Positions 2,191 through 63,242 are shown, counted from the first letter of the stretch. The stretch: DNA of 64,000 nt from Thermoanaerobaculia bacterium (GCA_030429235.1 JAUIDB010000002.1:176769-240768), one strand, 5' to 3'. Notes: a model not told the origin generated them from the letters alone. Made by a program: numbers and translations.

Positions 2191-3354
2191 CTACGGCGCG
2201 TCCCATCCGCTGGTATCCCCGGACTCGAACCCATCGAAGAACACGGGCACGGCATAGTCCCAGTCGGCCAGACTAGAAAGGGAGACTACTAGTGGACCGG
2301 CTGGATTGAGGTTGGGATCGAACTGAACGCTGTAGTTCCAGGCCAAGAGTGGGTTCTGGGGGTACGAGTAGCCGATCTCCTGGTTCTGGCAGAGCCCTAG
2401 GTTGGGTGACATCCCGTAGCGAACTCTGAGGTCGTGAGCGTTGGTCCCGCATTCGCCCACATACTGCAGGGTCAGAGTGTAGTCGTCGGCAGTTCCTGCC
2501 AACCGATCGGCTCCGGTACGGGCCATTTTGATCATGTTGACATCATCAGCAGACAGCCCTGAGAAGAACTGGCCTGCGGTGGCGCCTGAGTACATTACCG
2601 ACTGGGCCTTGGCGTAGCCAAGGTGAAGGCCTACGAAACGGTTGGCGTTGGCTCCTCTGCGGTCCCCGGATGGATGGGAGGAGCGGGCGCTGGAGTAGGT
2701 GTCACGATCAATGAGCGTCGAGTCCAAGACAAACGGGTCATTGTCGCTCGTGCGAAACCATGAGACTGAGAGTGCCTCCTCCCCCATCGCGTCGATATGA
2801 AGGTCGTCTGCGGTCCCACGGATACCGTCGACGCCAGGAGAGATGCCGTTGGCAGCAGCGACCACTCCGAGAGATCTGGTAAAGCTCGTTTCCTCGAAGA
2901 CTCCATCCCATCCAACATCCCAGGGCCGATTCGGATGGCCAAGTCCAACCGCGCAATGACCTAGTTCGTGTAGGAGCACGGTCGCTGCAAACTTAGGTCC
3001 AGATGGGAAGGGAGTGTCCTCCCACGGATGGCACCCATGGCAGTTCCGAGGAACTGCGACTGCTTCGTTCCAGATCTTGATCGACCACTCGAGACCGGGA
3101 AGCAGTTCCATGGCATCGGAATCGAGGCAGATCCGGAGGTTGAGTGCATTCTGCGTTCCGTCGTAGCCCAGAGGGTGCACCACTGCAAAGGGCGTAACGG
3201 GGCAAGCTGGGCATTGAGCGGCCGGATTCGCCGGGAGGCTTTCTTGGCAGCCCAAGGTACTATTACAATCCGCAACATCAACATACGAGCCGCCGCTGCT
3301 AGGACTTGTCGCCACGAGCGTCCCTAAGATCAAAGCGCTGAGAAACTTCATCAC
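2191..3354 (-). CDS. Secreted metzincin-type zinc metalloprotease (HExxHxxGxxH) carrying the C-terminal DGFESGDTSGW tail.
   Basis: N-terminal signal peptide MMKFLSALILGTLVATS and motif LLHELGHCAVGLGH. C-terminus reads ...VPVFFDGFESGDTSGWDAP*. The coding sequence sits inside the low-GC islet. Confidence 0.8.
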   Translation of the reverse strand: MMKFLSALILGTLVATSPSSGGSYVDVADCNSTLGCQESLPANPAAQCPACPVTPFAVVHPLGYDGTQNALNLRICLDSDAMELLPGLEWSIKIWNEAVAVPRNCHGCHPWEDTPFPSGPKFAATVLLHELGHCAVGLGHPNRPWDVGWDGVFEETSFTRSLGVVAAANGISPGVDGIRGTADDLHIDAMGEEALSVSWFRTSDNDPFVLDSTLIDRDTYSSARSSHPSGDRRGANANRFVGLHLGYAKAQSVMYSGATAGQFFSGLSADDVNMIKMARTGADRLAGTADDYTLTLQYVGECGTNAHDLRVRYGMSPNLGLCQNQEIGYSYPQNPLLAWNYSVQFDPNLNPAGPLVVSLSSLADWDYAVPVFFDGFESGDTSGWDAP

Positions 3355-3965
3355 TGATTCTCACTGCTTTCGAAGATCGCCCGGAGAGCTGACACGAGCA
3401 ACACGAGACCCTCGGGCTGTCTCAGCTGTGGAGTCCGCTCGGCCTGTTCCCACGGGTCCACGATCGAATATTCGACTACAAGAGGGCCCAGAGCTGCTTC
3501 ATGCGTGAGGTAGCTTGCACGGAGCTGAACGACTATGGCGTCGGCAGAATCCGACCTGTTGTTTCCGATGGACTCCCGAAACTCTGACTCCGAAACAGCG
3601 GCCATGTTGGCGGAACTCACCAGGTCCATCAGCGTGAGGATCTGACTCCTATCGATCGTGTGTTCTTGACGGTCAAGTGGCTGATCCCGGTGTGCCTGAT
3701 TCACTTCGAGACGTACAACCCGACCGTCCCCGTAGAGGTAATACTCCGGAACGTTGGTTCCGAGGCCACCATGCCAGGTGAGAAACAGGATCTCATCATC
3801 GCCGTGATTGCTGACCACGAACGGCAGACTCGCTTCATCGGGTTGCTCGATCATGGCCAGGGCGCTCACAACTATGCCGATAGACAGGGCGACTGCCAGC
3901 ACGAGCAACTGTGTTCGCCTCACGCTGGGGCGCAAAGTCCGACTACTAGAACTCTTCACCACCAT
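3351..3965 (-). CDS. Hypothetical membrane-anchored protein; its stop overlaps the start of the metalloprotease, so the two look like an operon.
   Basis: A 204-aa ORF with an N-terminal TM helix (LLVLAVALSIGIVVSALAM). The 4-nt overlap with 2191..3354 suggests translational coupling. It lies in the low-GC islet. Confidence 0.5.
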   Translation of the reverse strand: MVVKSSSSRTLRPSVRRTQLLVLAVALSIGIVVSALAMIEQPDEASLPFVVSNHGDDEILFLTWHGGLGTNVPEYYLYGDGRVVRLEVNQAHRDQPLDRQEHTIDRSQILTLMDLVSSANMAAVSESEFRESIGNNRSDSADAIVVQLRASYLTHEAALGPLVVEYSIVDPWEQAERTPQLRQPEGLVLLVSALRAIFESSENQ

Positions 3966-4561
3966 CTCTTCTCCCCTGGAGCATTACTCGTATTCCAATA
4001 CTAGATAGTTACCTGTTCCAGTGCAACTGTACCGTGCCGCCTTTCGGCCTAGCCCTGGTCCTGGTTCAGGCAGCGGCGCTTGCCACCCACTCCCCAAAAC
4101 CGCGGATTGAACCCCATCTCGACCGTCCGCTCTTCAACCGTCCGCCCCGTCACCTACAAGTTCCCCTCCGCCGTCGCCCTCCCCCGCGACAGCGTCTAGA
4201 TCGCAGAGGGCACGCCGGTCATGGCGTTCGTCCCGCTCACCTTGTCCAATGGATCATTCGGCGTCGACCCATTCGTGTGGTGCACCAGCACCAAAGCGAT
4301 CCCCCTTCTTTTCGGCTGGGCTTCTCTTCATCACGGCGGCCGCCAGCGGATCAGTGGCCAGGCTACAGCGGAACTGTAGGGACTCACAGCTCGATTCTAG
4401 CGAAGGTCCGGTCGACGAACCGATCCTGGCGGGCAGAGGAGAGCGCTGCCTTCGAGGCACGTCAACTAGCGGCGACTCCCGGGGCTCGACTCTGGGCCCT
4501 AGATCGGACTGCCGACCCGCGGCGGTAACCTTTGGCCGCGCATTTCGTTAATACCATCGTG

Positions 4562-7347: not shown

Positions 7348-9870
7348 ATGCAACAGGGCCCCCGGGAGTCGCGCCTGGTCGGGCGCCAACTGGGTCACTA
7401 TCGGATCTTGAAGGAGATTGGGCGTGGTGGCATGGGGGTGGTGTGTCTCGCCGAAGACACTCACCTCGGACGCAAGGTCGCCCTCAAGGTGCTCCCTGCG
7501 TCGATCGCCGAGGATCGCAAACGGCTCGACCGTTTCCGACGGGAAGCCAAGGCGCTCGCCTCGTTGTCCCACCCGGGGATCGTGACCCTCTACTCGGTCG
7601 AGGAGGAGGATTCTGTCCACTTCCTGACCATGGAACTGGTCGAAGGGCCGACCCTGGGCGACCTGATCCGGGAGGGCGAGCTGACGCTGGAGCGTTGTCT
7701 CGAGATCGGCATCGCCTTGGCCAGCGCCCTTCAGGCGGCCCATGAGCATGGGATCCTGCACCGCGACATCAAGCCCAGCAACGTCATGATCGGGCAGGGC
7801 AACTGGGTCAAGCTGCTGGACTTTGGACTGGCCAAGCTCTCGCCATCGATCGAGCTGACATGGGCGGATGGCAAGATGGTGGAGTCGGCCCTGACCCAGG
7901 AGGGAAGCGCCGTCGGCACCCTGGGCTACATGGCGCCGGAGCAACTCGTGGGTCGGCCGGCCGACGAGCGTTCCGACCTCTTCTCGCTCGGTTTGGTTCT
8001 CTACGAGATGCTGACCGGGGCCGCACCCTTCGCCGGCGAGACGTCGGCGGCGCGGGTTGCCGCGGTGTTGCGCGACGAACCCACTTCCCTGAGGGAACGA
8101 CGCGGCGACCTGCCGCGGGAGCTCGTGAGGACGGTCGAGAAGTGCCTCTGCAAAGCGCCCGAGAAGCGGTTCGCCAGCGCGGCGGAACTGCTCGAGGCGT
8201 TGGAGGAGGCACAGCGGGGACTGGAGATCGAGAAGCTACGGCGCTCGGACCCGAGCTTGGCCCGCGCCCAGCGAGATCCGAAGCACAGACTCGCCCTGGG
8301 CGGGCTGCTGGCCGCTGGCTTTGCGGTCGTGTTGATCGGTCTGGTCTGGATGAACCGTCCGGGAGAGCCCGCTGGTCCGCCAGAGTCGGGACCGGGAGCA
8401 CCGGCTTTGGGTTTGCTGTCCGCGAGCGCAGGGGCGAGCGCGAGCGCCGACGCGGTCGAGGCGCGTCCCGTGCTCGCGGTGCTGCCGCTGAGCAACCTGA
8501 CCGGCGACCCCGAGTACTTCGTCGAAGGCATGACCGACGCTCTGATCGGTTCTCTCTCTCGCAGCGGGACCTTGACGGTGATCTCGCGACAGTCCGCCAT
8601 GCGGTTCCGGGGTTCGAGTCTGCCGCTCGCCGAGATCGCGTTGCAACTGGGAGCCGAGTACCTGGTCGAGGGGACCGTGGCCCGCACGGGGGAGAACGTC
8701 CACCTGCAAGCGAGAGTGGTGCGACCGAGCCCCGAAGAGCAAGTGTGGGCCAAGGTCTACGACCGGCCGATCGAGGAGGTCTTCACCATGCACGACGAGA
8801 TCGCAGGCAGCGTGGCCGCCGCGCTCGGGGTGCCGCCTGCGACCGGCTTCGTCAGTCGCGCCAACCAGCGCAACGCCGTCGATCCGATGGCCTACGAGGC
8901 CTATCTGAAGGGACGGTACTGGGGGTCACGGTACTCCGAAGCAGATCTACGGAAGTCACAAGGGTACTTCGAGCAGGCCGTGGCCATCGACGACGGCTTC
9001 GCGCGCGGGTGGGCCGGGTTGGCCGAGTCGTTGCTGTCCCTGGCGGCACTCCATAGTGATGCAAACGAGACCCTGGCGCTGGCCGAGGCGGCGGCGCAAC
9101 GAGCCGAGCAGCTGGATCCCAGCCTTCCCGAAGCCCATGCCTTGCTGGGGGATCTTAGCCTTCAGCGCTGGCGTTGGGCAGAGGCCGAGCAGCGGATCAC
9201 CCAAGCGTTGGAGCTGGACTCCAACTCCGCCGTGGCGCAACGACGGTACTGGATGTTGCTCGCCTGTCAACAGCGTTTCAGCGAGTCGCGCCGCGCGGTC
9301 GAGGCTGCCCACCGGTTGGACCCCCTCTCCGCCCCAACTCTGGCCAACGTCGGGATCCAGCATCTGTTCGAGGGCCGAACCGAGCAGGCGGAGCGCGTAC
9401 TGCTCGAGGTACTCGAGGAGTCTCCCGACTACGCTCTGGCCCACGCCTATCTGTGGCTCCTCTACCATGATCAAGGAGTCGATCCGGCCCGCGGTCAAGC
9501 TCTAGCGGCCTACCTCGCGGGATTCGGCTACGCAGAGGTCGCGCAAGGAGTGCGGGACCGACTGGATCAGGAGGGCTACGACAAGGCGTTGGTCTGGGCT
9601 GCCGACCAGGTCGCACGACGCGAGGATCCGCAGGGGAAGTTCTCTGCGGTCGCCGCCGGCCTGCTCGCGGCCTCCGGACAGTCGGAACGGGCGATGCGTT
9701 GGCTCAACGCCGCCTACGAAGGGCGCGTGTGGGACCTGGCCTGGGTCGGGGTCTCGCTCGACTACGCGAGCCTCTGGAGCCGCGAGGACTTTCGTGATCT
9801 CCTCGCCCAGGTCGGCGTGCCGGCTCCGCGAGCCGCCGAGCCCGCTAGTCGAACTGCGTCCGAATCATGA
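7348..9870 (+). CDS. Ser/Thr protein kinase with a TM segment and a C-terminal TPR-repeat domain.
   Basis: GRGGMGVVCLAEDTHLGRKVALK (G-loop and Lys), HRDIKPSNVMI, DFGLAK and APE motifs. TM helix LALGGLLAAGFAVVLIGLVW. C-terminal TPR-like repeats. Confidence 0.85.
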   Translation: MQQGPRESRLVGRQLGHYRILKEIGRGGMGVVCLAEDTHLGRKVALKVLPASIAEDRKRLDRFRREAKALASLSHPGIVTLYSVEEEDSVHFLTMELVEGPTLGDLIREGELTLERCLEIGIALASALQAAHEHGILHRDIKPSNVMIGQGNWVKLLDFGLAKLSPSIELTWADGKMVESALTQEGSAVGTLGYMAPEQLVGRPADERSDLFSLGLVLYEMLTGAAPFAGETSAARVAAVLRDEPTSLRERRGDLPRELVRTVEKCLCKAPEKRFASAAELLEALEEAQRGLEIEKLRRSDPSLARAQRDPKHRLALGGLLAAGFAVVLIGLVWMNRPGEPAGPPESGPGAPALGLLSASAGASASADAVEARPVLAVLPLSNLTGDPEYFVEGMTDALIGSLSRSGTLTVISRQSAMRFRGSSLPLAEIALQLGAEYLVEGTVARTGENVHLQARVVRPSPEEQVWAKVYDRPIEEVFTMHDEIAGSVAAALGVPPATGFVSRANQRNAVDPMAYEAYLKGRYWGSRYSEADLRKSQGYFEQAVAIDDGFARGWAGLAESLLSLAALHSDANETLALAEAAAQRAEQLDPSLPEAHALLGDLSLQRWRWAEAEQRITQALELDSNSAVAQRRYWMLLACQQRFSESRRAVEAAHRLDPLSAPTLANVGIQHLFEGRTEQAERVLLEVLEESPDYALAHAYLWLLYHDQGVDPARGQALAAYLAGFGYAEVAQGVRDRLDQEGYDKALVWAADQVARREDPQGKFSAVAAGLLAASGQSERAMRWLNAAYEGRVWDLAWVGVSLDYASLWSREDFRDLLAQVGVPAPRAAEPASRTASES

Positions 9871-13368: not shown

Positions 13369-13596
13369 GTTCTTTTCTCAGGAGGTGGAAGAGGACCGGC
13401 CTGCTGTGTTGCCGCTCTCGAATCCGTCGCTGAAGGAGGGTACCGTGGCCCCGAGCTCGTCGGCTCGTCGGCACCCTTCCAGAGCCCGTGCGATCGGACT
13501 GGCTAGGGGTTCTTGCGCTTGCCGTTGCGAGCAGTCTTCATGGGTAGGCCACCTGGACGGCTCTACGCCAGCTCAGCATCCCGTTGGGTTCTCGTT

Positions 13597-15678
13597 CTAC
13601 CAGGCTGTGGTGTCGCCACTCTCGAAACCATCTGAGAAGATCCCGGAACAGAGCACGGGCGGAGTGTCGTCGGAGCGAAGGGTCACCCCATCGACTGCCG
13701 CCTCGATCACGTCGCCACCGCCGACGTCACCCGCCGTAAAGCGGATGCGGAGCTGGTTCGTGGTGGAGACGAAGTCTGCCACGCGGAAGGACTGGCGGAC
13801 CCAGGCTCCATCGACCCCGGGGCCGATGGTCTCGAGGGTCGTCCAGTTCGATCCATTGTCATCGGAGATCTCGACCAGGAAGGTGTCGTCGCTGGGGTCC
13901 CCTGGGCCGCCGTCGTCCCACCAGCGCCAGTAGGAGATCTCGGCATCGGGGTCGCCGCTGGCGTCGAGGGTGGGAGACACGAGACGTGTCGCTCCGCCGT
14001 CGACGTCGGTGTTGCCGCCGGCAGGGTCGGTCAAGAAGGCGAGTCCATCACCTTCCGTGTCGGCATCCCAGGGCGGGTCCTGACGGAAGCCATAGCCCGA
14101 CGGCAGGCCGCGCTCCCAGCTGCCCGCAGTCAGGCCCGGGTCGTCGTCGACGGTCCACCCCTGATCGGATTCGAAGGTGTCGCGGAAGAGGACGTCGTAG
14201 CCGAAGCCGACCCAACGACGGTACCGTCGGTCGGTGGTCGGGTCCGCCGCAAAGGGATGGGACACCGTGGTGCCGGTCGTCGACTCCGCGTCGATACGGA
14301 CGCTGACCTCCGTGCCGCAGCCGAGGGTCGGAAAGTCGGCCTGCCAGATCCCGCCACCCTGGGAAACGAGCGGCACGACCTGGTCGCCGGCGCCGGCATC
14401 GTAGGTGAAGGTCGCGGAGTTCAGCGCCGCCGGGCTGCCAGCCCGGTCGAGGATCGCCACCTGGAAGGTGCTGCCGTCCGGGGCGATGGGAGCCTCGAGC
14501 GGGCTGACGGCCTCGATGCGCAGTGGGCGCTGACCGTCGGTACAGACTCCCAACGGGTTGGCCAGGGCGTTCTGGACGGCCGCGAGATCGATGTTGGTTC
14601 CGTTGTTGGCTCCTCCGCCGGCGCTACAACCGGCGTGGGTGTGGATTCCGATCGCGTTCCCCGAAGCCTCGTCGATGACGGGTGATCCAGAGTCGCCGCC
14701 GGTGGTGTCCGTGGCGTACTGCAGATTGGACGGCGTGACGACGGTCAACGGCCCCACGTGGGTGGTCTGGACCTGGCTCCAGGAAAGAGGAGTCCCCTGT
14801 GTGCCCGTGGTGGTGCCGAAACCGGTGATCCGGATCTCGCTACCCAACGGAAGCCCGGAGGGGGAGGTGAGGACGTAGGTCGAACCCTGGACCTCCACCG
14901 GAGCGAGCTGGGACTGGCTGTTGGGGAAGGCGCCGAAGTAGGACCAGTCGTTGCCGATCCCTCCATCCGTTCCCTGGACGGAAGAGAGGTCCACCGGGTA
15001 CTGATCGATCGGGGCGGGGTGGTTGATGGTGCCATCGGCGTCGGAGAGGGGCACGTTGAACTCGACGACATGAAGACTGCCGCCCGAGATGCAATGGCCC
15101 GCCGTGAGGAAGCAGCCTTCGGCGTCGTCGATCAGCCAGACCGTACACCCCACCGGCACCACGCGGGCGTTGCGCGGGTCGGCGGCCAGGATTCGGTCGT
15201 CGGTAGGACCGCAGATCGACTCCGGGATGGCGGCCGGTTCGCCGACCATGAGTTCGGCGATGGCCAGACGGCTGGAGCCGGCTTCGGGGGGCGACAGGAT
15301 CTCCACCCGCACCTGGTCCCCGTTGAAGAAGGCGCTCGAGTTCTTCCATTGCGCCAGCGAGGTCGCATCGAGGGTCTGCACGGCACCGTCTTCGATCGAG
15401 GTCAGACGGATGATGGCGCCCTCGCCGTCGGCCACTGCGCCGAGCTCGGCCTGGGAGAAGAAGAGTCGGAGCCAGGGCGCTCCGTCGAACTGCACGGTCT
15501 CGTCGTAGATCACCTCGAGCCCTCCACCCTCGGTGGGATCGGAAGTTCGGGCCTGAACCTCGCCGGAATCGAGCTGGTACGCGACCATCCGGTGAGGCGT
15601 CGGTTGTTGGGCCCATAGGGACGCTCCGCAACAGGTGGCGAGCGCCAGAATCGACAGGGATCGCAGGGAGTGGGGCAT
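13597..15678 (-). CDS. Secreted multidomain trypsin-like (S1) serine protease carrying the C-terminal DGFESGDTTAW tail.
   Basis: Signal peptide MPHSLRSLSILALATCCGASLWAQQ. LTAGHCISGG (His), GNDWSYF and GGDSGSPVID (Ser) motifs. C-terminus reads ...CSGIFSDGFESGDTTAW*. Confidence 0.8.
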   Translation of the reverse strand: MPHSLRSLSILALATCCGASLWAQQPTPHRMVAYQLDSGEVQARTSDPTEGGGLEVIYDETVQFDGAPWLRLFFSQAELGAVADGEGAIIRLTSIEDGAVQTLDATSLAQWKNSSAFFNGDQVRVEILSPPEAGSSRLAIAELMVGEPAAIPESICGPTDDRILAADPRNARVVPVGCTVWLIDDAEGCFLTAGHCISGGSLHVVEFNVPLSDADGTINHPAPIDQYPVDLSSVQGTDGGIGNDWSYFGAFPNSQSQLAPVEVQGSTYVLTSPSGLPLGSEIRITGFGTTTGTQGTPLSWSQVQTTHVGPLTVVTPSNLQYATDTTGGDSGSPVIDEASGNAIGIHTHAGCSAGGGANNGTNIDLAAVQNALANPLGVCTDGQRPLRIEAVSPLEAPIAPDGSTFQVAILDRAGSPAALNSATFTYDAGAGDQVVPLVSQGGGIWQADFPTLGCGTEVSVRIDAESTTGTTVSHPFAADPTTDRRYRRWVGFGYDVLFRDTFESDQGWTVDDDPGLTAGSWERGLPSGYGFRQDPPWDADTEGDGLAFLTDPAGGNTDVDGGATRLVSPTLDASGDPDAEISYWRWWDDGGPGDPSDDTFLVEISDDNGSNWTTLETIGPGVDGAWVRQSFRVADFVSTTNQLRIRFTAGDVGGGDVIEAAVDGVTLRSDDTPPVLCSGIFSDGFESGDTTAW

Positions 15679-39214: not shown

Positions 39215-40153
39215 TCACCAGTTCGTCGAGTCGCCGCTCTCGAAACCATCGGCGAACAGCAAGTCGCCGTCCGCCGCGGCGAAGAGCACCGCGTTGACCA
39301 GGATCTGAAAGTTCGGTCCGCCGGGACCGAGAGCGTGGGGTTCGTGCTCGCCCGGTTGGTACATCAGCACGATGCCATCCCACTCGGGGCGCCGCTGCAC
39401 GTAGCCCAGGAGGTGGGTGCCAGAGTCGTAGTCGCTGGCGAACAGGGGTTCGATCAGACCGCCGCCCGGGAGCAGGTCGAGGTTCGGATACCGTTCGTCG
39501 GGAGTGTTGTTGAACATCGGGTAGTTGGCCAGGGGGATGCCGTTCGCCGGATCTTCGTACAGCACCGAGTCCCCGTAGGCGACTCCGTAGGCAGCGACGA
39601 AGTGCTGCGGCGCGACGGCGATGACGTTCTGCCCTTCGACGGTGTTCCAGGGCACGGCTCCGGTGGCCTCGGCCCCGAGCAAAGCTTGCATCGCCTCCTT
39701 GCCCGCCGTGCGGTAGATCCCGTGGTGGAAGGAGAGGACGCTGCCTCCGTCCGTCAGGAACTGATCGACCGCGGCCACGAAGTCCGCCTGCCGCTGGGCC
39801 GCGTCGGCGCCGTTGGGGATTCGGTGGGCGAAGTAGATCAGCACGTCGTAGGCCAGAGGGTCTCCCGGGGGAAGTTCCAGCCAGGCGGTGGCGAGTTCCA
39901 GGCTGTCAGTCGGGATCTCCAACACGGGGTCGGGCCCGGCGAGCTGGAGCCCGCTCAAGGCGAGGAGGGCCGTCGAGATCTCGCCGGGCTGGGTCAAGTC
40001 CGCCGGAGGCAGCCCGTGGGGGTTGACCTCGTCGCTCACGATCAGGATCCGCAGAGGGGCGTGCGGGGCGACCGTCTGAGCACCGAGTGGTGCGACCGAG
40101 CTCGAGACGATCAAGAAGGCCGAAGCCAGGAAAGCAGCCGAGAAGTGCGCCAT
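39215..40153 (-). CDS. Secreted ThuA-like (class-I glutamine-amidotransferase-like) protein carrying the C-terminal DGFESGDSTNW tail.
   Basis: Signal peptide MAHFSAAFLASAFLIVSSSVAPLGAQ. C-terminus reads ...GDLLFADGFESGDSTNW*. Confidence 0.55.
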   Translation of the reverse strand: MAHFSAAFLASAFLIVSSSVAPLGAQTVAPHAPLRILIVSDEVNPHGLPPADLTQPGEISTALLALSGLQLAGPDPVLEIPTDSLELATAWLELPPGDPLAYDVLIYFAHRIPNGADAAQRQADFVAAVDQFLTDGGSVLSFHHGIYRTAGKEAMQALLGAEATGAVPWNTVEGQNVIAVAPQHFVAAYGVAYGDSVLYEDPANGIPLANYPMFNNTPDERYPNLDLLPGGGLIEPLFASDYDSGTHLLGYVQRRPEWDGIVLMYQPGEHEPHALGPGGPNFQILVNAVLFAAADGDLLFADGFESGDSTNW

Positions 40154-47436: not shown

Positions 47437-47440
47437 CTCC

Positions 47441-49308: not shown

Positions 49309-50827
49309 CATGGTCGGTGATCGATTGGAGTGCCGTTTCGAGGTCTGCCCGCGGATCGGGCGGGGCGCGGTGCGGACGAACCTGCTGCTCGCCTTGCTAC
49401 TGTTACTCGCCGGTCCTTCCGGGGCCCAGAGCGAAGTCCGGGCGGACCTGCCCGCGTCCGCGGTCGATCTCCACACCCACGTCTTCAACGCGGGGTACCT
49501 CCCCGTGGAGGGGATCATGGTGTCCCGGGGCGTGCCGAAGGTGGTGGCTCGGCTGCTGGCTCGCTTCCTCGAGTCGCGGGTCGAATTCGCCGACCTCTCG
49601 CAGAGCCGCGACGAACTGTTTGCCGCCGACCTGCTCAATCCGCTCGAACTCAGTGAAGCGCAGGCCAAGGCCGAGCTGTTCAACCGCGGCGACCTGCCCG
49701 ACCTGACTTCACGGCAGCGCCGCCAACTGCGCCGCTACCTGCTCGAGGCCAGTCCCGAGGCGGATCAGGACCTCGATCGTCTCTCCGACGAAGAGCTGGT
49801 CGCCCGCGGGCTCGAGGAGGCGCCGTTGACGGCCGACGGAGGTAAGAACACCTTCCGCTTCCTGCTGTTACTGCTGCGGGACGAGGTCACCATCGTGCGG
49901 ACTTTGCGGGACGAGTACCCGATCGGGCGTTTCGTCCACCACATGATGGACCTGGAGAAGGCCTACGACGACCGGCCGATCCTGGAGTTCCGCGACGAGC
50001 AGATTCCGCGCATGCAGGCATTGGGCGAGATCTTCCCCGACGAACTGGTCTGGTTCGTCGCCTTCGATCCCTTCCGACGCGATCAGTCACTCGAGATCGT
50101 CAAGGCCGCAGTCCGGGGCGGGGCCGCGGGGATCAAGTTCTATCCCCCCAGCGGTTACCGCGCGGCGAACAACGACATCCCGAAGAAACCGCGCTGGTAC
50201 CAACGCGCGAAGAGGAAGCAGTGGAAGTCCCGCTATCGTGATCTGAGGGACGCGGACCTCGACCGGATCAACGACCGGCTCTTCGCCTGGGCCGCCGAGC
50301 GAGGGGTCCCGATCCTCACCCACTGCACCCCCGCCGGGTTCGAGGCCTCCAAGGGGTACGGGAAGATGAGCGACCCGGACCACTGGAAACCGGTCCTCGA
50401 CAAGTACCCGAACCTTCGCATCGCCTTTGGGCACGGGGGCGGGGGAGAGGGGTGGTTCGCCGAGGCGCCTTGGGACCTCGCACGTCCGGCGACCTACGGC
50501 GAGAAGGTCTACGCCCTGGTCACCCAGTACGAGAATGCCTACCTCGGGGTCGGCTACTGGGACGAGATCCTCGACGGCGACCCCGCGAAGGACTACCGCG
50601 GCCACCTGCAGCGCCGGCTGGAGCGGTTGATCGACCGTTCCGGCGACCCCTACCGCCTCGGCGACAAGATGCTCTACGGCACCGACTGGCACATGGTGTC
50701 GAAGCTCGACGACCGCCGCCGCCTGCTCACGGAGTTCCTCGACCTCTTCGATCAGCCGCAACTCCGCCCGTGGCGTGACCGGCTCTTCGTGGGCAATGTC
50801 GAGCGCTTTTTGAACCTGACCGAATGA
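49309..50827 (+). CDS. Secreted amidohydrolase-superfamily (TIM-barrel metallo-hydrolase) protein.
   Basis: Signal peptide LLLALLLLLAGPSGAQS and a DLHTHVF metal-binding motif. Confidence 0.65.
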
Positions 50828-50854
50828 CCTAGCTCAACCCAGGAGGTCCCATCG

Positions 50855-54579: not shown

Positions 54580-54598
54580 CCGCGAGAGGAGAGGAACG

Positions 54599-55702
54599 GT
54601 GACGGAAGCAGAGAGTTCGAGATCGGATCGGCAACGGACTAGGTTTGCAGTGGGTCTGACCGCATTGGCCTTGATCGGAGTGTCCTTGGGAGGTCGGGCT
54701 GCGGCGGGAGAGGCCGCTCGTTCCGACCTCTCGGCGACGCCGTCCCTCGCCGCCGTCGAGTGTCTCACCTACTCGCAAGAGCGCGGACTCTTCTCGCAGC
54801 TCGGCACGGCCTACGAGGTGCTGGACGACCAGTTCGCACGCAGCGATGCGATCGTGGCTTCGGAGATCGTCTTCGGGGCCGACAGCCGATTGGTGTTCCC
54901 CCGGATGGAGTACTCCAAACGGGGACCCTCCCACTGCGCCGATCTCTATTTCGTGGTGGCGGATCGGTTGACCAGCGACGAGGCGGCTGCGGCCACCATC
55001 ACCTGGGATCGGGCGTTCCCGGCCGATCCTCCGCTCGACCGTGGCTGGGCGCCGGCGGGAGCGGGAGGCGTGGCTCCGGGCGAGGACGGCAGCGACGGCT
55101 CTCCCGGAGGGCCCGGCAACGCGGGCCGCGACGGCGCGCACGCGCCCAATCTCCTGGTCATCCTGGGGGAGCTCACAGGCCCGCTAAGCCTCGACTTGCG
55201 GGGACAGGATGGAGGCACCGGAGGAGTGGGGCAGAGCGGTGGCCCGGGTGGAGCTGGGGCCAGCGGCCGCGCGGCGGTCCCCGGATTGCTCGACTGCCGG
55301 AAAGGACCGGGGGCGGGAGGCGACGGTGGTGACGGCGGCCTAGGAGGCCGCGGGGGTCGCGGTGGCAACGGCGGTTTGGGGGGCACGGTGATCGTGATCG
55401 CTCCCGAAGAGCAGGCGGCGACCATCGATGAACTGCTCGACGTGACCGTCGATGGCGGGGCCGCGGGCGAAGGCGGCGCGCCAGGCATTGGGGGCACGGA
55501 AGGACGTGCCGGACGAGAAGGCAGAGCCACGCCCCCGTGCCGATCGGCTCGTCGCGATGGAAAGACCGGGCAGAGGGGGGGCGACGGGGTGGAAGGGGAG
55601 GATGGTGACCCCGGAGAGTCGGGGGACTACTACCTGCTTCCCCTACCGGCCGAGCAGTTCGAGGAAGTTCTCGGGGCGGCCTTTGGTCGAGCCGCCGAGT
55701 GA
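54599..55702 (+). CDS. Secreted Gly-rich protein with collagen-like G-X-X triplet runs.
   Basis: GEDGSDGSPGGPGNAGRDGAH, GQDGGTGGVGQSGGPGGAGASG and GKTGQRGGDGVEGEDGDPGESGD are perfect G-X-X repeats. Hydrophobic N-terminus. Confidence 0.5.
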   Translation: MTEAESSRSDRQRTRFAVGLTALALIGVSLGGRAAAGEAARSDLSATPSLAAVECLTYSQERGLFSQLGTAYEVLDDQFARSDAIVASEIVFGADSRLVFPRMEYSKRGPSHCADLYFVVADRLTSDEAAAATITWDRAFPADPPLDRGWAPAGAGGVAPGEDGSDGSPGGPGNAGRDGAHAPNLLVILGELTGPLSLDLRGQDGGTGGVGQSGGPGGAGASGRAAVPGLLDCRKGPGAGGDGGDGGLGGRGGRGGNGGLGGTVIVIAPEEQAATIDELLDVTVDGGAAGEGGAPGIGGTEGRAGREGRATPPCRSARRDGKTGQRGGDGVEGEDGDPGESGDYYLLPLPAEQFEEVLGAAFGRAAE

Positions 55703-56688
55703 AGACGGGGGCCGTACTGCTCGTGTTCTGGCTGGCGCCCACCGTCCTGTGGGCGCAGCCCGAGGACGAAGTCGCCTACCTGGCGGAGCTGCTGCTGCAG
55801 GCTTCGGAGCTGCCGAAGCGCGCCCTGGTGGTAGGGGTGGAGAGCTACGATGACCTCCCCGACGTGACCAACGCCACCAGCGATGCGACGAGAGTCTCGC
55901 TGGCGCTCAAGGACCTCCAGTTCGCGGTCACCCCGGCCACCGACCTCAACCGGCGCCAGTTCTTCGAACACCTCGACGACTTCGTCGATCGCTCGCTCGC
56001 CGTCTCGCTTCCCGAACAGGCGGTGGTGGTCTTCTACTTCTCCGGCCACGGCTTTCGCTTCGGGGACGACAACATGCTGGTACCGGCCGATGCCGCAGCG
56101 ACTGGCGAGAGCCTGGTCGACAAGGCCGTGCCCCTCTCCCACGTGGTGCAGCGGATCGTGGACAAGAACGTGGCCCTGGCCCTTTTCTTCATCGATGCCT
56201 GCCGCACCGAGCTCACTAGTTTGCAGGAACTCGAACTCGAGGTCGGCTTCGCGGAGCCGCTGGTGCGGCACAACACCTACTACGGCTTCGCCAGCGGCTA
56301 CGGCAAACCCTCCTTCAGTTTCGTGCGGGAGGGGGACGCCAACAGTCCCTTTGCGAGGTCGCTGGCCACTCGGTTGACGATGCCGGGGGTCGAACTCCAC
56401 AGTCTCTTCGAAGGGGTCCGTCAGGAAGTGGCCAACCTCAGCGAGCAGCGTCAGGTGCCCCACGAACACAAGGACTTCTTCGGTGACTACTACTTTGCCT
56501 TGACGCCCCAGCATCGGAACGCTCTCAGGGGACAACTGTCTACGGCCCTCATTCTCGCCGCCCTGCGTGGACCGGGGTGCGTGCGCTCGTATCTCGCTTC
56601 CGATCCCGCGAGTGAGTTTTCGACCGCCGCCCGCGCCTGGCTTCTGGACCAGAACGAGCCGCTGAAAGGTAGCGTCCATTGCGAGTGA
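55699..56688 (+). CDS. Secreted caspase-like (peptidase C14) domain protein.
   Basis: Signal peptide MKTGAVLLVFWLAPTVLWAQP. RALVVGVESYDD, FYFSGHG (His) and LFFIDACR (Cys) dyad contexts. Confidence 0.65.
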   Translation: MKTGAVLLVFWLAPTVLWAQPEDEVAYLAELLLQASELPKRALVVGVESYDDLPDVTNATSDATRVSLALKDLQFAVTPATDLNRRQFFEHLDDFVDRSLAVSLPEQAVVVFYFSGHGFRFGDDNMLVPADAAATGESLVDKAVPLSHVVQRIVDKNVALALFFIDACRTELTSLQELELEVGFAEPLVRHNTYYGFASGYGKPSFSFVREGDANSPFARSLATRLTMPGVELHSLFEGVRQEVANLSEQRQVPHEHKDFFGDYYFALTPQHRNALRGQLSTALILAALRGPGCVRSYLASDPASEFSTAARAWLLDQNEPLKGSVHCE

Positions 56689-57536
56689 TGGGACCGCTTT
56701 CCCAGGTGCGGCTGCGCGGTGGCCTCGGCTGGCTGCTGCTGGTGGCGTTGACCGCTCCGGCCGGCGCCGAATCGGAACCGATCGCCAAGGCCCGGCAGAT
56801 GGCGCGCGAGAACCTAGAACCCAAGATCGTCTTGGGGGAACCGGTCCCTCTGGAAGAGCGCCCCTGGCAGGTAGCTCTGGTGCTTTCGGAGCTGACGGAC
56901 GACTACCGAGGGCAGTTTTGCGGTGGAACCCTGATCGTTCCGGACTGGGTGTTGACCGCGGCCCACTGCGTCGACGGCGACACCACCACCGAGGAGGTCG
57001 AGGTCCTCTTCGGGAGCGCGACGCTGGATCAGAGCGGCAATCGGATCGCCGTTCGTCAGATCCGCCTCCATCCGGCCTGGAACCCCGCCACCCGAGACCA
57101 CGACGCGGCGCTACTCCAACTCTCGGGCGCCGTCCGCAGCCAACCCCCGCTCGCGCTGGCCGCCTTAGAGCAGCTGACCGCGGCCGAAACCCTGGAGGTG
57201 TCCGGCTGGGGCAAGACGGACGAGTTCGTCGTCTTCAAGTCCCGGGGCCTTCTGCAGGTGCAGCTCCCCCTGGTCAGCCACGAGGACTGCACCCAACCCG
57301 ACAGCTACGGCCAGGCGATCACCCCGGCGATGTTCTGCGCCGGTCGCCGCGAGGGAGGGGAGGACGCCTGTCGCGGTGATAGCGGGGGCCCCGCCACGGT
57401 CACCGTCGAGGGGGAGGAGCGGTTGGCCGGCATCATCAGTTGGGGCGAAGGCTGTGGCCGGGCCAAGAAGTACGGCGTCTACACCACGGTGCCCCAGGTC
57501 GCCGACTGGATCCGCTCCGTGCTGTCGTCAGGGTAG
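56688..57536 (+). CDS. Secreted trypsin-like (S1) serine protease.
   Basis: LTAAHC, DAALLQL and GDSGGP triad. Signal peptide. ATG overlaps the upstream stop (tgATG). Confidence 0.85.
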   Translation: MGPLSQVRLRGGLGWLLLVALTAPAGAESEPIAKARQMARENLEPKIVLGEPVPLEERPWQVALVLSELTDDYRGQFCGGTLIVPDWVLTAAHCVDGDTTTEEVEVLFGSATLDQSGNRIAVRQIRLHPAWNPATRDHDAALLQLSGAVRSQPPLALAALEQLTAAETLEVSGWGKTDEFVVFKSRGLLQVQLPLVSHEDCTQPDSYGQAITPAMFCAGRREGGEDACRGDSGGPATVTVEGEERLAGIISWGEGCGRAKKYGVYTTVPQVADWIRSVLSSG

Positions 57537-57713: not shown

Positions 57714-59039
57714 ATGCGAGCACGCAACCACCACCGACGACACCGTCCGCTTCTCTTGGCCGCCTCGCGGGTGGCCGTGGGTGTGGCTCTGCTGTCGGCC
57801 GCGGCAGCGGCCCCCGCCGCGGCCTCGCCGCTCGGACCCGGTACCGAACTCTGGATCACCCTCGGCGCTGATGCCTTCGATCTTCTGGCCGGTCAGGCCG
57901 ACCACCAGGGCCTGGAGCGCCTCGAGGAGCAGGACGGGGTGGTGCTGACGCAGGTCCGATTCGGGGATCTAGCGGGTCTCTCGGCCTCGCTCCACGAATC
58001 GACCGGCCGCTGCGCCGGGTTCCTGGCTCACCGCACGCTGGCGCAGGCCCGCGCCGCCCTGGCGGTACCGCGCACCAGGAGCTCCCTGGCGGGTGGCGTG
58101 TCGTACTCGATCAACCAGACCGAATGGGTCACGAGTCTCGAGGCCGATCTGGACAAACCCTCGATCCTGGCCACCATCGATCACCTGTCGACTGCCTACC
58201 ACAACCGATACCACGCCTACTCTTCGGGGGCCGAGGCGGCGGAGTGGATCCGCGACCTCTGGCGGAGTTACGCAGAGACGCGACCCGAGGTCACGGTGGA
58301 ACTGGTGTCCCACCCCGGCATCAATCAGCCGTCAGTGGTGTTGACGATCCCCGGTTCGACCTTCCCCGATCAGCACGTGGTGCTGGGAGGACATCTCGAC
58401 TCCGTCAGTCCGGGGACCAGCAACCCGAACTTCCTGGCGCCGGGGGCCGACGACAACGCCTCCGGCATCGCTGTGCTCGGCGAGATCGCGCGCGTCGTCC
58501 TGGCGGCGGACTTCCGACCCCAGAGGACGGTCCAGATCATGGGCTACGCGGCGGAGGAGATCGGTCTGGTGGGATCGCAAGATATCGCCGACGGCTACGA
58601 GGCGGCCGGCCGCGACGTGGTGGCGGTGCTGCAGTTCGACATGACCGACTACTTCGGATCGGTGGAGGACATGGCCTTCCTCAGCGACTACACCAACGCC
58701 GATCTCACCGCCTTTCTCGGGCAGCTGGTCGACACCTACCAACCGGTACTCGCCTGGACCACCAGCGCCTGTGGGTACGGCTGCTCGGACCACGCGGCCT
58801 GGCATCGGGCCGGCTATCCCGCCTCTATGTCGGCCGAAGCCCGCTTCGGGCAGCACAACCCCGCCATCCACTCCACCTCCGACACGTTGGCGACGCTCGG
58901 CCACAACGTGGACCACGCCTTCAAGTTCGCCCGCCTGGGTCTCTCCTTCCTGATCGAAATCGGCAATCCGGAACGGTTCCTCTTCCGGGATGGTTTCGAG
59001 ACGGGATCGACCGAGGCCTGGTCCCAGTCGGTGCCTTGA
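57714..59039 (+). CDS. Secreted M28-family zinc aminopeptidase carrying the C-terminal DGFETGSTEAW tail.
   Basis: HLDSV, ADDNASGIAVLGE, GYAAEEIGLVGS and DM..DY metal-ligand motifs. C-terminus reads ...ERFLFRDGFETGSTEAWSQSVP*. Confidence 0.85.
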   Translation: MRARNHHRRHRPLLLAASRVAVGVALLSAAAAAPAAASPLGPGTELWITLGADAFDLLAGQADHQGLERLEEQDGVVLTQVRFGDLAGLSASLHESTGRCAGFLAHRTLAQARAALAVPRTRSSLAGGVSYSINQTEWVTSLEADLDKPSILATIDHLSTAYHNRYHAYSSGAEAAEWIRDLWRSYAETRPEVTVELVSHPGINQPSVVLTIPGSTFPDQHVVLGGHLDSVSPGTSNPNFLAPGADDNASGIAVLGEIARVVLAADFRPQRTVQIMGYAAEEIGLVGSQDIADGYEAAGRDVVAVLQFDMTDYFGSVEDMAFLSDYTNADLTAFLGQLVDTYQPVLAWTTSACGYGCSDHAAWHRAGYPASMSAEARFGQHNPAIHSTSDTLATLGHNVDHAFKFARLGLSFLIEIGNPERFLFRDGFETGSTEAWSQSVP

Positions 59040-61590: not shown

Positions 61591-61730
61591 GGTCGGGTCT
61601 CCCAGGGGCTGGGGCTGTTCCGAGGGCCTCGGAGTTGGGGAGCTACCTGAGGAGGCCAGGTCAGGTCGCTCCAAAGCGGCTTCGGCTCGGCTGGCCGACG
61701 GTCGCCACGCACTGGTGGCTTGACACGGGA

Positions 61731-63242
61731 TCAAGGGTTGGAGTTCCAGGCTGAGAGCGTACCGCTTTCGAAGCCGTCGGCGAAGAGGGGTTTGCAGCTG
61801 GGAAAGGAGGCGGCAGTGACCGAGGTGGCCCAGTTCCAGTGCACAGCAGGGGGAAGATCTTTGCTGTAGATCCCGGCGTACCAGAAGGTAGTGCCCGCGG
61901 GATCGATCGTCATCCCCGTGGACTCACCCCAGCGATTGGGGTTGCGGTACGGAGTCTCTCCCGGTTGGACCAGGATCTCTGGTCGCAGTGTGCCCGGGGC
62001 ATCAGTGGCCAGCCTTCCGGCCACGGCCGTCGAGGGGAACTCTGAGGGTGAGAATCGCGTGTATCCAAGGGCGACGTTGCCACAGGCGTCGACGGCCAGA
62101 TCCCCATAGGCCCTCGAGCTGTCTTCGCTCCCGAAGACTCCAGCCTCGATCGCCGTCCGAGTGGCCAGCTCGATCTTCGCCCACTGCAAGCAGTTCATCG
62201 GAAGCCCGTTTTGATCGCAGGCCGCGTGGTTGACGGTCCACCCATAGCCGTGGCGGTACTCGAAGTCGGTGAGGCGGGAATCGCCCCCCGAGATCGGGCC
62301 GGTCCCTCCTGCTTGAGGGTTGTCGAGAGGGGGAGAGAGGCTGATGCCGTGGAGAGCCTCGAGGTCGAGGTTGGTCTGGAGGCTCAGGATGTTGCTACCG
62401 AAGGGATCGGTCCAGCTGATGATCCCCAAGTCGCTAGGGGAATCCACGGATGGAATCAGCAGGAAGTAGTGTTGGTCGCCTTCCGGCCAGCTACCGTCCC
62501 GCCATCCGTGGAGATGCAGGGGCACCGGGAAGTCCGTGGTCGAGCGGATCTCCTTCTGCACCCAGCTCGCTGGGTCCCCGGCGTACATCTCCTCTTTGTC
62601 GAAAGCAAAGACGGCGGGGCGGCCAGCCGATAGATCGATACCAGCCATGAATATGGCCTCGGTACCGATTCCCGCTCTCATCAACTCCCAGTAGCCTTCG
62701 GCGAAGGGAAAGACGTAGCCGTACCAGGTCGCGGTAGGGTCCGAGGTCGCGGTCACGGCCATGCAGTAGAAGTCTCCGGCCGAGGCGCCGACTACGAATC
62801 GATCACTGCGTTCGTCGTAGAGGGCCTCGGGAAAACTGTGGTTCTGGCAGGGAGGCGCCCCAAAGAAGAGCCCCGGTAGGTCGGTCGAGAGCAGGGGCTC
62901 TCCATCGGTCGAGAAGACCTCGACCGAGCGCACTGTCGTCACCACGACGTGGTTCGGACCGACCGCGATGTCGGGTTGGCTGGGACTGGAACCACCGGGT
63001 CCGGGGCAGCAGGTCTCGGCGTCGGCTGCTGGAAAGCTCGTTTCGATTTCTAAGTTCATGCCGGCACCTCCGAGGAGAACAGGCTCTGATTCGCCGATGC
63101 TTTGCCCAGGGGCCGGGCCGGTGAGTGCAGCCAGCCAACTCGGACCCAGAAGGAGCAGGCCAAGGCCCAGCCCGGTACGAACCTCGGTACGTAGGCGGTC
63201 GAAGGACAGTGTGAAGGTGGAATCTATACAGCGGTGGACCAT
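61731..63242 (-). CDS. Secreted hypothetical protein carrying the C-terminal DGFESGTLSAW tail.
   Basis: Signal peptide. C-terminus reads ...CKPLFADGFESGTLSAWNSNP*. Confidence 0.5.
   Translation of the reverse strand: MVHRCIDSTFTLSFDRLRTEVRTGLGLGLLLLGPSWLAALTGPAPGQSIGESEPVLLGGAGMNLEIETSFPAADAETCCPGPGGSSPSQPDIAVGPNHVVVTTVRSVEVFSTDGEPLLSTDLPGLFFGAPPCQNHSFPEALYDERSDRFVVGASAGDFYCMAVTATSDPTATWYGYVFPFAEGYWELMRAGIGTEAIFMAGIDLSAGRPAVFAFDKEEMYAGDPASWVQKEIRSTTDFPVPLHLHGWRDGSWPEGDQHYFLLIPSVDSPSDLGIISWTDPFGSNILSLQTNLDLEALHGISLSPPLDNPQAGGTGPISGGDSRLTDFEYRHGYGWTVNHAACDQNGLPMNCLQWAKIELATRTAIEAGVFGSEDSSRAYGDLAVDACGNVALGYTRFSPSEFPSTAVAGRLATDAPGTLRPEILVQPGETPYRNPNRWGESTGMTIDPAGTTFWYAGIYSKDLPPAVHWNWATSVTAASFPSCKPLFADGFESGTLSAWNSNP

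Follow-up and report, generated by a model that had tools for sequence, protein, structure and literature searches.

The window, by which we mean the whole stretch of 64,000 nucleotides analysed, contains five otherwise unrelated ORFs whose products end in a common tag, F-x-D-G-F-E-[ST]-G-x4-W, with at most five more residues between the Trp and the stop codon (Table 1). The earlier note had claimed such a C-terminal motif for five ORFs between 2191 and 63242. The translations and the quoted ends could all be reproduced, while the motif formula had to be corrected because four residues, not three, separate Gly from Trp. As had been stated, all five N-termini look signal-peptide-like when read from the sequence, and the 0-5 residues behind the Trp are mostly polar, leaving no transmembrane segment there. 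The carriers are indeed unrelated to each other: in an all-vs-all BLASTP comparison, similarity at E<0.05 is limited to the 14-17 C-terminal residues. Two of the tags stop at the Trp and thus lack the S-x-T-V-P tail described below; the other three run past it.

Table 1. Tags and tag-related features in the window.
Feature	Position	Strand	Sequence	Remark
Tag of 387-aa HExxH-type metalloprotease-like exoprotein (ORF 2191-3354)	2194..2241	-	FFDGFESGDTSGWDAP	
Decayed tag copy	13381-13434	-	FSDGFESGNTAGR / FSDGFESGNTAGRSSSTS	Trp replaced by Arg; in spacer 3' of S1 protease gene
Tag of 693-aa S1 (Trypsin_2) protease (ORF 13597-15678)	13600..13638	-	FSDGFESGDTTAW	
Internal related first-strand motif in S1 protease	14155..14187	-	FRDTFESDQGW	opens jelly-roll domain
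Tag of 312-aa exoprotein (ORF 39215-40153)	39218..39256	-	FADGFESGDSTNW	
Tag of 441-aa M28 (LapA-like) aminopeptidase (ORF 57714-59039)	58983..59036	+	FRDGFETGSTEAWSQSVP	
Tag of 503-aa exoprotein (ORF 61731-63242)	61734..61784	-	FADGFESGTLSAWNSNP	

The fold labels originally given to the carriers held in part. Trypsin_2 and Peptidase_M28 are well founded; the body of the "metzincin" matches no Pfam family, although an HExxH-type motif is present, and the ThuA match of the 312-aa exoprotein is sub-threshold (E=0.16). A family search with the 503-aa exoprotein gave no match. The gene for the metalloprotease-like protein lies, as reported, on a low-GC islet (GC 0.57-0.60 at 2100-4200 versus 0.66 for the whole window).

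The S1 protease region is more complex. Its tag is followed immediately by the stop codon, and a decayed sixth copy, absent from the original list of five, occurs in frame with it 68 codons downstream, behind two stop codons. The order is thus tag, stop, about 55 decayed codons and relic tag, and the read-through translation is collinear with two intact two-motif proteins (P0283, P0294). The internal jelly-roll domain of the protease has a weak similarity to choice-of-anchor J (MAM-like) domains (NF038128, residues 505-647, E=0.015, below the cut-off).

Six matches to a degenerate DNA pattern encoding DGFE[ST]G lie in the window, compared with 0.00 expected from 100 dinucleotide-preserving shuffles, and in a six-frame translation DGFE is found solely within the context of the tag motif. 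The codons vary synonymously between copies (Ser as TCC, AGT or AGC; Gly as GGG, GGT, GGA or GGC) and the DNA around the copies shows no likeness. The conservation is therefore at the level of the peptide and does not reflect a DNA repeat, and the synonymous variation indicates selection on the tag peptide. The sequence GATGGTTTCGAGAG, common to three of the copies, had raised the idea of an artefact, be it a DNA repeat, mis-called gene ends or a common upstream domain, but no support for this was found. An artefact can be practically dismissed: in addition to the unrelated flanks and the variable synonymous sites, upstream similarity is absent, the stop codon lies 0-5 codons past the tag in more than 100 independent genomes, and the same tagged proteins are called in independent assemblies.

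Beyond the window, a search with a tag profile retrieved representatives of 7,626 protein clusters at E<=1e-3, a number that combines C-terminal tags with the domain starts discussed below. In a genome scan, the tag was mostly encountered in MAGs from Acidobacteriota (Thermoanaerobaculia, Holophagae), several of which have 3-5 tag loci each, and 101 of the 131 genomic hits are located at most 8 residues from the stop. The consensus is [ILV]-F-A-D-G-F-E-S-G-D-T-S-A-W-S-x-T-V-P-COOH, with a tail that reads more exactly S-[AS]-T-V-P. F1, F5 and W13 and the acidic residues D3, E6 and D9 show little or no variation, although the search pattern itself had preset several of them. Of 217 tags, 73% extend exactly 5 residues beyond the Trp, and Pro is the last residue of 78%; conservation upstream of the tag is limited to a hydrophobic residue at -1 and linkers rich in Pro/Gly. 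Pfam assignment distributes 84 carriers over 58 families, with cargo that includes FG-GAP, S8, M14, M28, M36, PKD, beta-helix and cytochrome proteins, and 61 of 82 complete carriers have a signal peptide by a crude test. The tag is a self-contained peptide module, about 13-19 residues long, which is joined to its carriers by a short, unconserved linker. It is not confined to this genome, and its description as a modular, lineage-enriched C-terminal element on heterogeneous exported proteins has been borne out. It also agrees with the failure to recognise any named sorting signal that no Pfam or NCBIfam model covers the tag, neither with whole proteins nor with tails at E values up to 10. In the literature, we found no paper that describes it.

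Further information came from proteins in which the motif is not terminal. Judged by profile alignment, the tag equals the opening beta-strand, as far as the first turn, of a ConA-like jelly roll of about 200 residues (PF14099-like, here called D) that occurs elsewhere as a complete domain at the C-terminus of secreted proteins. The motif opens a domain of about 200 aa in 25 of the 131 genomic hits, and in multi-motif proteins the spacing between motifs peaks at about 192-226 aa. Tags align to positions 1-17 of an HMM for D. One protein, P0289, scores 31.9 bits against PF14099, above the gathering cut-off of 29.9, and its alignment to the profile starts at position 1 with the DGFE of the motif. 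In Acanthopleuribacter pedis (L111), the motif including W-S-S-S-T-P runs on into a full domain, and it likewise continues into a full domain in many proteins from Chloroflexota and Actinomycetota. The same F-x-D-G-F-E-S-G-D-x-S-x-W is found in ConA-like domains (PF14099 Polysacc_lyase; CBM_4_9, choice-of-anchor J/MAM-like, NTTRR-F1). The window proteins differ from these in lacking the remaining 185 or so residues, as they stop 0-5 residues past the Trp, and the tag has its own conserved tail, S-x-T-V-P-COOH. A scan of the window with the D-domain HMM matched nothing beyond the tags, and in all five carriers the stop follows the first strand.

The earlier note had considered that the motif might turn out to be the conserved C-terminal strand of a known larger domain lying upstream of it. 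The situation is the reverse: it is the conserved first strand of a ConA-like domain, the rest of which is missing downstream. The tag does not close an upstream fold, as the residues ahead of it are not conserved (217 tags) and it is unstructured in the AlphaFold model of the M28 aminopeptidase, where the body has pLDDT values above 90 while residues 420-441 are at 54-63 and have no secondary structure. Orthologues of this enzyme with 50-69% identity have kept the tag.

The tag might also be a vestige of little or no function, left by repeated truncation of a C-terminal ConA-like domain and retained only as an innocuous end of a linker or because a Pro-capped terminus resists the organism's own carboxypeptidases. 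That truncation does occur is illustrated by the S1 protease gene with its collinear two-motif relatives and by relic tags in spacers, both downstream of this gene and at another locus (L038), and a terminal Pro is frequent. We nevertheless consider this reading very unlikely. About 10 positions are near-invariant over thousands of proteins, and also in orthologues at 50% identity, which is not neutral behaviour; it is implausible that more than 58 families were truncated independently at an identical position, and protection of a terminus does not call for an invariant core of 13 residues.

The main rival explanation is a sorting or secretion signal that is read after Sec export by a dedicated lineage-specific machine, such as an outer-membrane translocon, a processing peptidase or a transpeptidase. 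The cargo would be carried across the outer membrane or attached to it, perhaps with subsequent cleavage of the tag, which would make the tag a functional analogue of the T9SS CTD and of PEP-CTERM with another recognition principle. Of the attributes that Haft lists for small C-terminal sorting domains (10.1101/2023.06.07.544157), the tag displays numbers 1, 2, 3 and 6: it lies near the C-terminus, is present in many copies per genome, has at least three invariant residues and is carried by proteins with N-terminal signal peptides. Attributes 4 and 5 are absent, as there is neither a TM helix nor a basic cluster. The range of cargo resembles that of known signals and the taxonomic range is restricted. 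A sorting receptor or a protease that reads the terminus would select for such a fixed distance between Trp and terminus, together with the frequent terminal Pro, and this counts against the docking function proposed below. On the other hand, clustering of the neighbouring genes at 118 tag loci revealed no recurring candidate for a sorting enzyme beside the tagged genes, and two of the window tags do without the tail. Moreover, tags occur in tandem with a spacing of 20-24 residues, some copies (P0352, P0034) directly follow the signal peptide, and polytopic inner-membrane proteins can carry tag-like ends, which one would not normally expect of a terminal signal that is cleaved off. We regard a sorting signal as possible, if slightly less likely than docking.

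A family of small secreted proteins, called S, corresponds to D minus strand 1 (25 clusters, 210-241 aa). These proteins match the D-domain HMM from position 18 to the end, straight after the signal peptide, and consist of the signal peptide, strands 2 to last, and the end FDEFESFRTLAP-COOH. An AlphaFold model of S is confident (pLDDT 87) and has 13 strands; Foldseek places it among ulvan lyases, alginate lyases and legume lectins. The S genes sit in exopolysaccharide gene clusters. Tag-like ends are encoded by 8 of 35 genes adjacent to S compared with 2 of 98 non-adjacent genes (Fisher p=3.5e-4). The tagged neighbours are mutually unrelated (a conserved partner called T, a cytochrome c-like protein, a beta-helix protein and a polytopic membrane protein), but six of the eight cases are the orthologous T-S pair, so that they amount to about four independent events.

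There is some evidence that the tag may be better understood as a binding or docking module than as a cleaved secretion signal, namely the tandem tags, the N-terminal copies, the tag-like ends of polytopic membrane proteins and the linkage to a strand-less candidate acceptor. We tentatively propose that it acts as a docking tag by strand complementation onto an acceptor which lacks that strand, a reading that we regard as plausible rather than probable. The tag would stay flexible after export until it meets its acceptor and would then insert by beta-strand complementation or augmentation. The acceptor would be the jelly roll D with strand 1 missing, with the S family as the example found. Docking would tether tagged hydrolases to a cell-surface glycan or matrix, which seems probable because of the lectin/polysaccharide-lyase fold of the acceptor and its exopolysaccharide gene clusters. 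The more far-reaching version is a split-domain system, widespread in Acidobacteriota, in which strand-1 tags on many exported enzymes are taken up by a separately secreted S-like acceptor that accepts any of them and tethers the exo-enzymes; this we consider possible rather than probable.

The distribution of S bears on this proposal. S is a small family whose members come mostly from sediment metagenomes, with an NCBI MAG in only one of the 25 clusters; this Thermoanaerobaculia MAG (CAZMEL01) also has a tag locus. Since S is rare in NCBI Acidobacteriota MAGs and tagged proteins are plentiful there, a recognisable S is probably absent from most tag-rich genomes. An S-like or strand-less D protein was not found in the 64-kb window, and for the Thermoanaerobaculia organism from which it derives we only infer an acceptor. 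In addition, the model of S folds confidently without strand 1, so S may not need to be complemented. As S and the tag share ancestry, their co-occurrence could also be due to a shared lineage or to gene fission and not to interaction.

Docking could also do without a protein acceptor. The tag may be a miniature binding module, a beta-hairpin with an aromatic face (F/F/W) and acidic residues (D/E/D) that directly binds a non-protein ligand such as exopolysaccharide, LPS or Ca2+ and so keeps the enzymes at the cell surface. The near-invariance of exactly these residues, albeit with several preset by the search pattern, would fit, as would the origin from a carbohydrate-binding or lyase-type fold and a tolerance of position and tandem repetition that is reminiscent of choline-binding or GW-type repeats. 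However, AlphaFold shows no hairpin, 13-19 residues are very few for autonomous ligand binding, and the first strand of ConA-like folds is a structural strand of the sheet and not the sugar site. As the linkage to S is also left unexplained, we judge such a module to be unlikely.

Among known systems, the beta-signal of outer-membrane proteins, in which a beta-barrel domain is closed by a terminal aromatic residue, was rejected, as three of the five tags extend past the Trp, carriers such as the M28 and S1 enzymes are soluble, and the consensus terminus is Pro. The T9SS CTD (TIGR04183/Por_Secre_tail) is likewise C-terminal, free of a TM segment, restricted to a lineage and present on many unrelated Sec-exported hydrolases and adhesins, with multiple carriers clustered in the genome. 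It is, however, a folded beta-sandwich of 70-100 residues from Bacteroidota, while the tag from Acidobacteriota is, as the earlier note had said, far shorter (13-19 residues) and is unstructured in the model; TIGR04183 and PF18962 remained unmatched in the Pfam/NCBIfam searches.

With the tripartite signals (LPXTG, PEP-CTERM/exosortase, GlyGly-CTERM, MYXO-CTERM), the tag shares its shortness, its position and copy number (5 intact copies in 64 kb; 101 of 131 near the stop), an invariant signature motif and heterogeneous "choice-of-anchor"-type cargo with signal peptides, and the putative partner S is found in exopolysaccharide loci, as are exosortases. It lacks two defining elements of the class, the hydrophobic segment of TM length and the C-terminal Arg cluster; tandem and N-terminal copies of it occur, and a candidate intramembrane protease was not found.

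The logic proposed here resembles that of dockerin and cohesin, where a small C-terminal module on many enzymes has a common surface acceptor. The dockerin is a Ca-binding, duplicated EF-hand-like fold of about 70 residues without relation to the tag in sequence or fold, and neither the five window proteins nor the 84 carriers have Dockerin or Cohesin Pfam matches; binding of the tag would instead complete a split beta-sheet. In this it would be analogous to donor-strand complementation in chaperone-usher and type V pili, with SpyTag/SpyCatcher as an engineered analogue, where a free strand fills a beta-sandwich. The pili are homopolymeric fibres of Ig-like pilins, and chaperone/usher genes were not seen here, while the tag would represent one type of strand on many enzymes that fits a ConA-like jelly roll. 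If true, this would join the principle of dockerin and cohesin to donor-strand complementation, and a whole set of exo-enzymes would be held at the exopolysaccharide or the cell surface.

The five carrier ORFs translate exactly as the earlier note gave them, with the C-termini ...FFDGFESGDTSGWDAP, ...FSDGFESGDTTAW, ...FADGFESGDSTNW, ...FRDGFETGSTEAWSQSVP and ...FADGFESGTLSAWNSNP, and we also read all five N-termini as the signal peptides that had been claimed. The regular expression proposed for the shared tag was one residue too short: the true core is F-x-D-G-F-E-[ST]-G-x4-W, and the canonical peptide is LFADGFESGDTSAWSSTVP. The carriers had been described as differing in fold. Pfam supports two of the assignments (Trypsin_2 and Peptidase_M28) and assigns no significant family to the remaining three carriers. 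When the carriers are compared among themselves by BLASTP, only the last 14-17 residues match at E<0.05. DGFE occurs six times in a six-frame scan of the window, each time within the tag motif, and DGFE[ST]G, searched as a degenerate DNA pattern, matches 6 times where 0.00 are expected (100 shuffles). Since the DNA flanking the tags is unrelated and the Ser and Gly codons vary among the copies, it is the tag peptide that is under selection. A DNA-level repeat or a mobile 3′ cassette is ruled out by the unrelated flanks and the varying synonymous sites.

The sixth copy is a relic, which lies in the same frame as the tag of the S1 protease, 68 codons downstream of it and behind two stop codons. 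If the protease gene is read through its stop, the tag is followed by about 55 decayed codons and then by the relic. This arrangement is collinear with two-motif proteins such as P0283 and P0294, where one motif occupies a loop, flanked by Cys, of a CBM4_9-like domain, with the second at the terminus. A nonsense mutation right behind the first motif seems to have truncated the S1 protease gene and, because of this collinearity, its present tag is probably a former internal copy that the mutation exposed. A related first-strand motif, FRDTFESDQGW, opens a jelly-roll domain within the same protease. Two Cys flank the motif both in P0283 and in the read-through of the S1 protease, which gives the impression of a motif presented on a disulfide loop.

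A low-GC stretch had been noticed around one carrier and is indeed present (GC 0.57-0.60; window mean 0.66). The peptidases of the peptidase-dense neighbourhood all lack the tag. One M12B protease has at its end a hydrophobic helix and then a basic patch, which looks like a classical tripartite sorting signal and is matched by none of the PEP-CTERM models; the organism may thus use a second type of anchor.

Features of the window discussed in the text
Feature	Position	Strand	Remark
Low-GC stretch	about 2100-4200		covers the tagged HExxH-type protein and the adjacent 204-aa ORF
Tagged HExxH-type protein	2191-3354	-	
204-aa ORF	3351-3965		no family match
Ser/Thr kinase and ECF sigma factor recurrence	7348-9870		
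Relic (sixth) tag copy	13381-13434	-	FSDGFESGNTAGR; six-frame scan; in the spacer (up to 13599) 3′ of the S1 protease gene
Tagged S1 protease	13597-15678	-	
Tagged protein	39215-40153	-	
Peptidase-dense neighbourhood	43069-57536		S8 subtilase (1186 aa), two M12B reprolysin-like proteins, caspase-like C14 protein
Reprolysin-like M12B protease with Big_1 domain	50855-52507	+	C-terminus VPGASLVSLSLGLLLALLFLWRRDQTLAAR
Predicted trypsin-like ORF	56679-57536		directly upstream of the tagged M28 gene
Tagged M28 protein	57714-59039	+	
Tagged protein	61731-63242	-	
Cys before tag	61785-61800		'SCKPL'

The tag is genuine, and its occurrence reaches far beyond what the window alone would suggest. An artefact is hardly to be believed. 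A profile built from the five window tails (last 43-49 residues) has more than 1,000 matches among 5.8 billion proteins; in the matches listed, [ILV]FADGFESGDTSAWSxTVP is the C-terminal end, and the named sources are mostly Acidobacteriota MAGs. Scanning one genome per species with a DNA pattern gave at least 118 loci. Among the matches listed, these are overwhelmingly from Thermoanaerobaculia, Holophagae, 'Multivoradales', Sulfomarinibacteraceae and unclassified Acidobacteriota MAGs, with a few labelled Deltaproteobacteria or Polyangiaceae. Also among the matches listed, 101 of the 131 in-frame motif matches are at most 8 residues from the stop, and in 66 of the 131 the stop follows exactly five residues past the Trp. 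Over 217 tags, a 5-residue tail after the Trp is found in 73% (consensus S-[AS]-T-V-P), the last residue is Pro in 78%, and position -1 is I, L or V, preceded by a Pro/Gly-rich but otherwise unconserved region; the invariance of the core is partly by construction, as the search pattern fixed several of its positions. A profile of 112 tags, run against 1.84 billion cluster representatives, retrieves 7,626 proteins at E<=1e-3, a figure that mixes orphan tags with domain starts and comes from a ranking in which multi-motif proteins and short fragments predominate.

The carriers are diverse. Among the matches listed, 84 of them fall into 58 different Pfam families, including FG-GAP, InhA-like MAM, S8, beta-helix, BNR, M14, M28, M36, PKD, cytochrome c and GH8, and a crude test finds a signal-peptide-like N-terminus in 61 of 82 complete carriers. 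Almost all LapA-type M28 orthologues (50-69% identity) retain the tag immediately behind the final helix of their catalytic domain, while a minority have long FN3-containing extensions in its place.

In 25 genomic matches, among those listed, the motif is not terminal and opens a domain of about 200 residues, here called D. These proteins come from Chloroflexota, Actinomycetota, Armatimonadota, a Bathyarchaeon and Acidobacteriota, including the cultured Acanthopleuribacter pedis. The proteins that lead the census have 2-6 motifs, with distances between motifs that peak at about 192-226 residues (D repeats), about 285-295 and 20-24 (tandem tags). D has weak matches to Polysacc_lyase (PF14099), CBM_4_9 and Laminin_G_3; P0289, one of the D proteins, scores above the PF14099 gathering threshold, with an alignment that starts inside the motif at profile position 1. 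Orphan tags align to positions 1-17 of the D HMM. By these alignments, the tag is strand 1 of a ConA-like jelly roll from which the remainder of the domain is missing. That it might be merely a vestige of such a domain, or a terminus cap, we consider quite improbable. According to the earlier note, the signal would fall if the motif were the C-terminal strand of a larger upstream domain. It is not such a strand, but the mirror image holds, as it corresponds to the first strand of a ConA-like domain. An upstream last strand is ruled out by the AlphaFold model of the window M28 protein (96 aligned homologues), in which the enzyme body has a pLDDT mostly above 90 and residues 420-441, the tag end, have a pLDDT of 54-63 and no secondary structure.

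The complementary part of the domain also exists as a separate protein. Locus L096 has a tagged cytochrome c-like gene and, next after it, an ORF of 221 residues that consists of a signal peptide and D from HMM position 18 to its end, i.e. D without strand 1. A secreted family of this kind, called S, comprises 25 clusters of 210-241 residues with one common architecture; 21 of the 25 end in FDEF ES[FY]R and a short TLAP-like tail, and four stop at the Arg. The AlphaFold model of S has 13 strands and a pLDDT of 87, and its Foldseek neighbours are ulvan lyases, alginate lyases and legume lectins. Glycosyltransferases, sulfatase-family proteins and methyltransferases surround the S genes, and the loci look like EPS-type loci.

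Among twenty-eight further S loci, taken from metagenomes, a conserved secreted protein of about 260 residues (T) directly precedes S in 6 and is two genes away in a seventh. T ends in C-x-D-[VL]-[IL]-F-F-D-N-F-G-[TS]-G-D-x-x-[RQ]-W-x-x-x-x-G-[SG]-COOH, a variant of the tag (LFFDGFEDGAINRWSAD in L137). At other loci, an unrelated tag-ended protein adjoins S, namely a beta-helix protein (L127) or a polytopic membrane protein (L140/L141). Counted by gene, tag-like ends are found in 8 of 35 S-adjacent and in 2 of 98 non-adjacent genes (p=3.5e-4); since the T-S pairs are orthologous, the 8 cases represent about four independent events. The S protein P0258 lies in a Thermoanaerobaculia MAG (CAZMEL01) that is also the source of a tag locus.

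Some further features of these loci were observed. The T-S pair is preceded by genes for an ECF sigma factor, a putative anti-sigma factor with Cys pairs and a LiaI/LiaF-like membrane protein, and a GT2 glycosyltransferase and sulfatases come after it (L142 199-3789; syntenic in L135, L136 and L139); it looks like a conserved operon under envelope-stress control. In several S loci, the sulfatase-family proteins share an extreme C-terminus, L-[RKE]-A-L-G-Y-[ILV]-x-COOH (e.g. DRLRALGYVD, LEALGYL; L124, L131, L132, L135, L138, L143, L147, L151), which is a second recurrent C-terminal motif. A Cys is often found 3-6 residues before the first Phe of the tag, as in one window carrier, in P0006, P0016, P0030 and P0037, and in the T family.

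The most economical reading, which we hold tentatively and at less than an even chance, is that the tag serves as a docking strand. Once exported, it would be flexible and would complete, or add to, the sheet of an acceptor of the same fold that lacks strand 1. Because the acceptor would resemble a lectin or lyase, with its gene in EPS loci, the surface glycan would be where the tagged enzymes are retained. As the tag is identical with the first strand of a ConA-like domain and is linked to a form of that domain lacking the strand, the proposed mechanism is concrete and testable; the function itself is inferred.

Several carriers bear on this choice. Tandem double tags occur in P0285, P0306, P0322 and others, and tag-like ends are also found on inner-membrane proteins. 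P0352 (238 aa) has a complete tag, including SATVP, immediately after its signal peptide, and P0034 (46 aa) consists of a signal peptide and a tag and nothing else; both are rare non-C-terminal uses of the tag module. Tandem tags, tags after a signal peptide and inner-membrane carriers are more easily explained by a binding module than by a terminal signal that is cleaved off. Nevertheless, a fixed five-residue tail ending in Pro is what a receptor that reads the terminus would select. This counts against a docking strand and favours a dedicated sorting or secretion signal, which we regard as possible but somewhat doubtful. The docking strand has other serious weaknesses: we only infer that S binds the tag, S is rare among the NCBI Acidobacteriota MAGs, where tags are common, and neither an S-like protein nor a strand-less D occurs within the window. 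Moreover, S is predicted with confidence to fold by itself. It is unlikely that the tag is a ligand-binding mini-hairpin. The probability left by these five readings is reserved for something not considered.

Acidobacteriota are among the most abundant bacteria of soil and sediment and are mostly uncultured; to our knowledge, the export and positioning of their many hydrolases is poorly known. One undescribed tag that marks thousands of their exoproteins offers a handle for secretome prediction in these lineages, and allows the matching machinery or acceptor to be sought by phylogenetic profiling. If strand complementation were true, it would be a new bacterial route to assembling enzymes on the cell surface, and the natural pair of short peptide and protein could serve as a tagging tool.

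All-against-all clustering of the neighbours in the 118 listed tag loci gave no candidate that is sortase-like or a peptidase; the one pairing that recurs beside tags is that of Ser/Thr kinases with ECF sigma factors, and these are probably just abundant paralogues of these genomes. Kinase genes are near tags in 14 loci and ECF sigma factor genes in 9 (L055, L063, L065, L069, L075, L080, L093, L116, L119 and the window are examples), and in several loci the two adjoin. The window itself codes for proteases, GGDEF proteins and a DUF5916/CBM9 protein, with no secretion or sorting genes.

Searches of Pfam and NCBIfam with whole proteins and isolated tails, at E up to 10, gave no model that covers the tag, which can guide annotation where both at present have none. 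The PDB, searched by sequence, has no usable match for the tag profile, the S profile or one D-domain protein, and literature searches by motif strings and by topic returned nothing relevant. Within the libraries and papers searched, the tag is undescribed. Its size, its fold and the model searches exclude a T9SS C-terminal domain. Of the seven attributes that Haft gives for small C-terminal sorting domains (10.1101/2023.06.07.544157), the tag has four, namely position, multiplicity, an invariant motif and signal peptides, but lacks the two that define the tripartite class, the TM helix and the Arg cluster. The tag is thus of a known general kind, a C-terminal tag shared by exoproteins, yet it breaks the defining rules of every named class.
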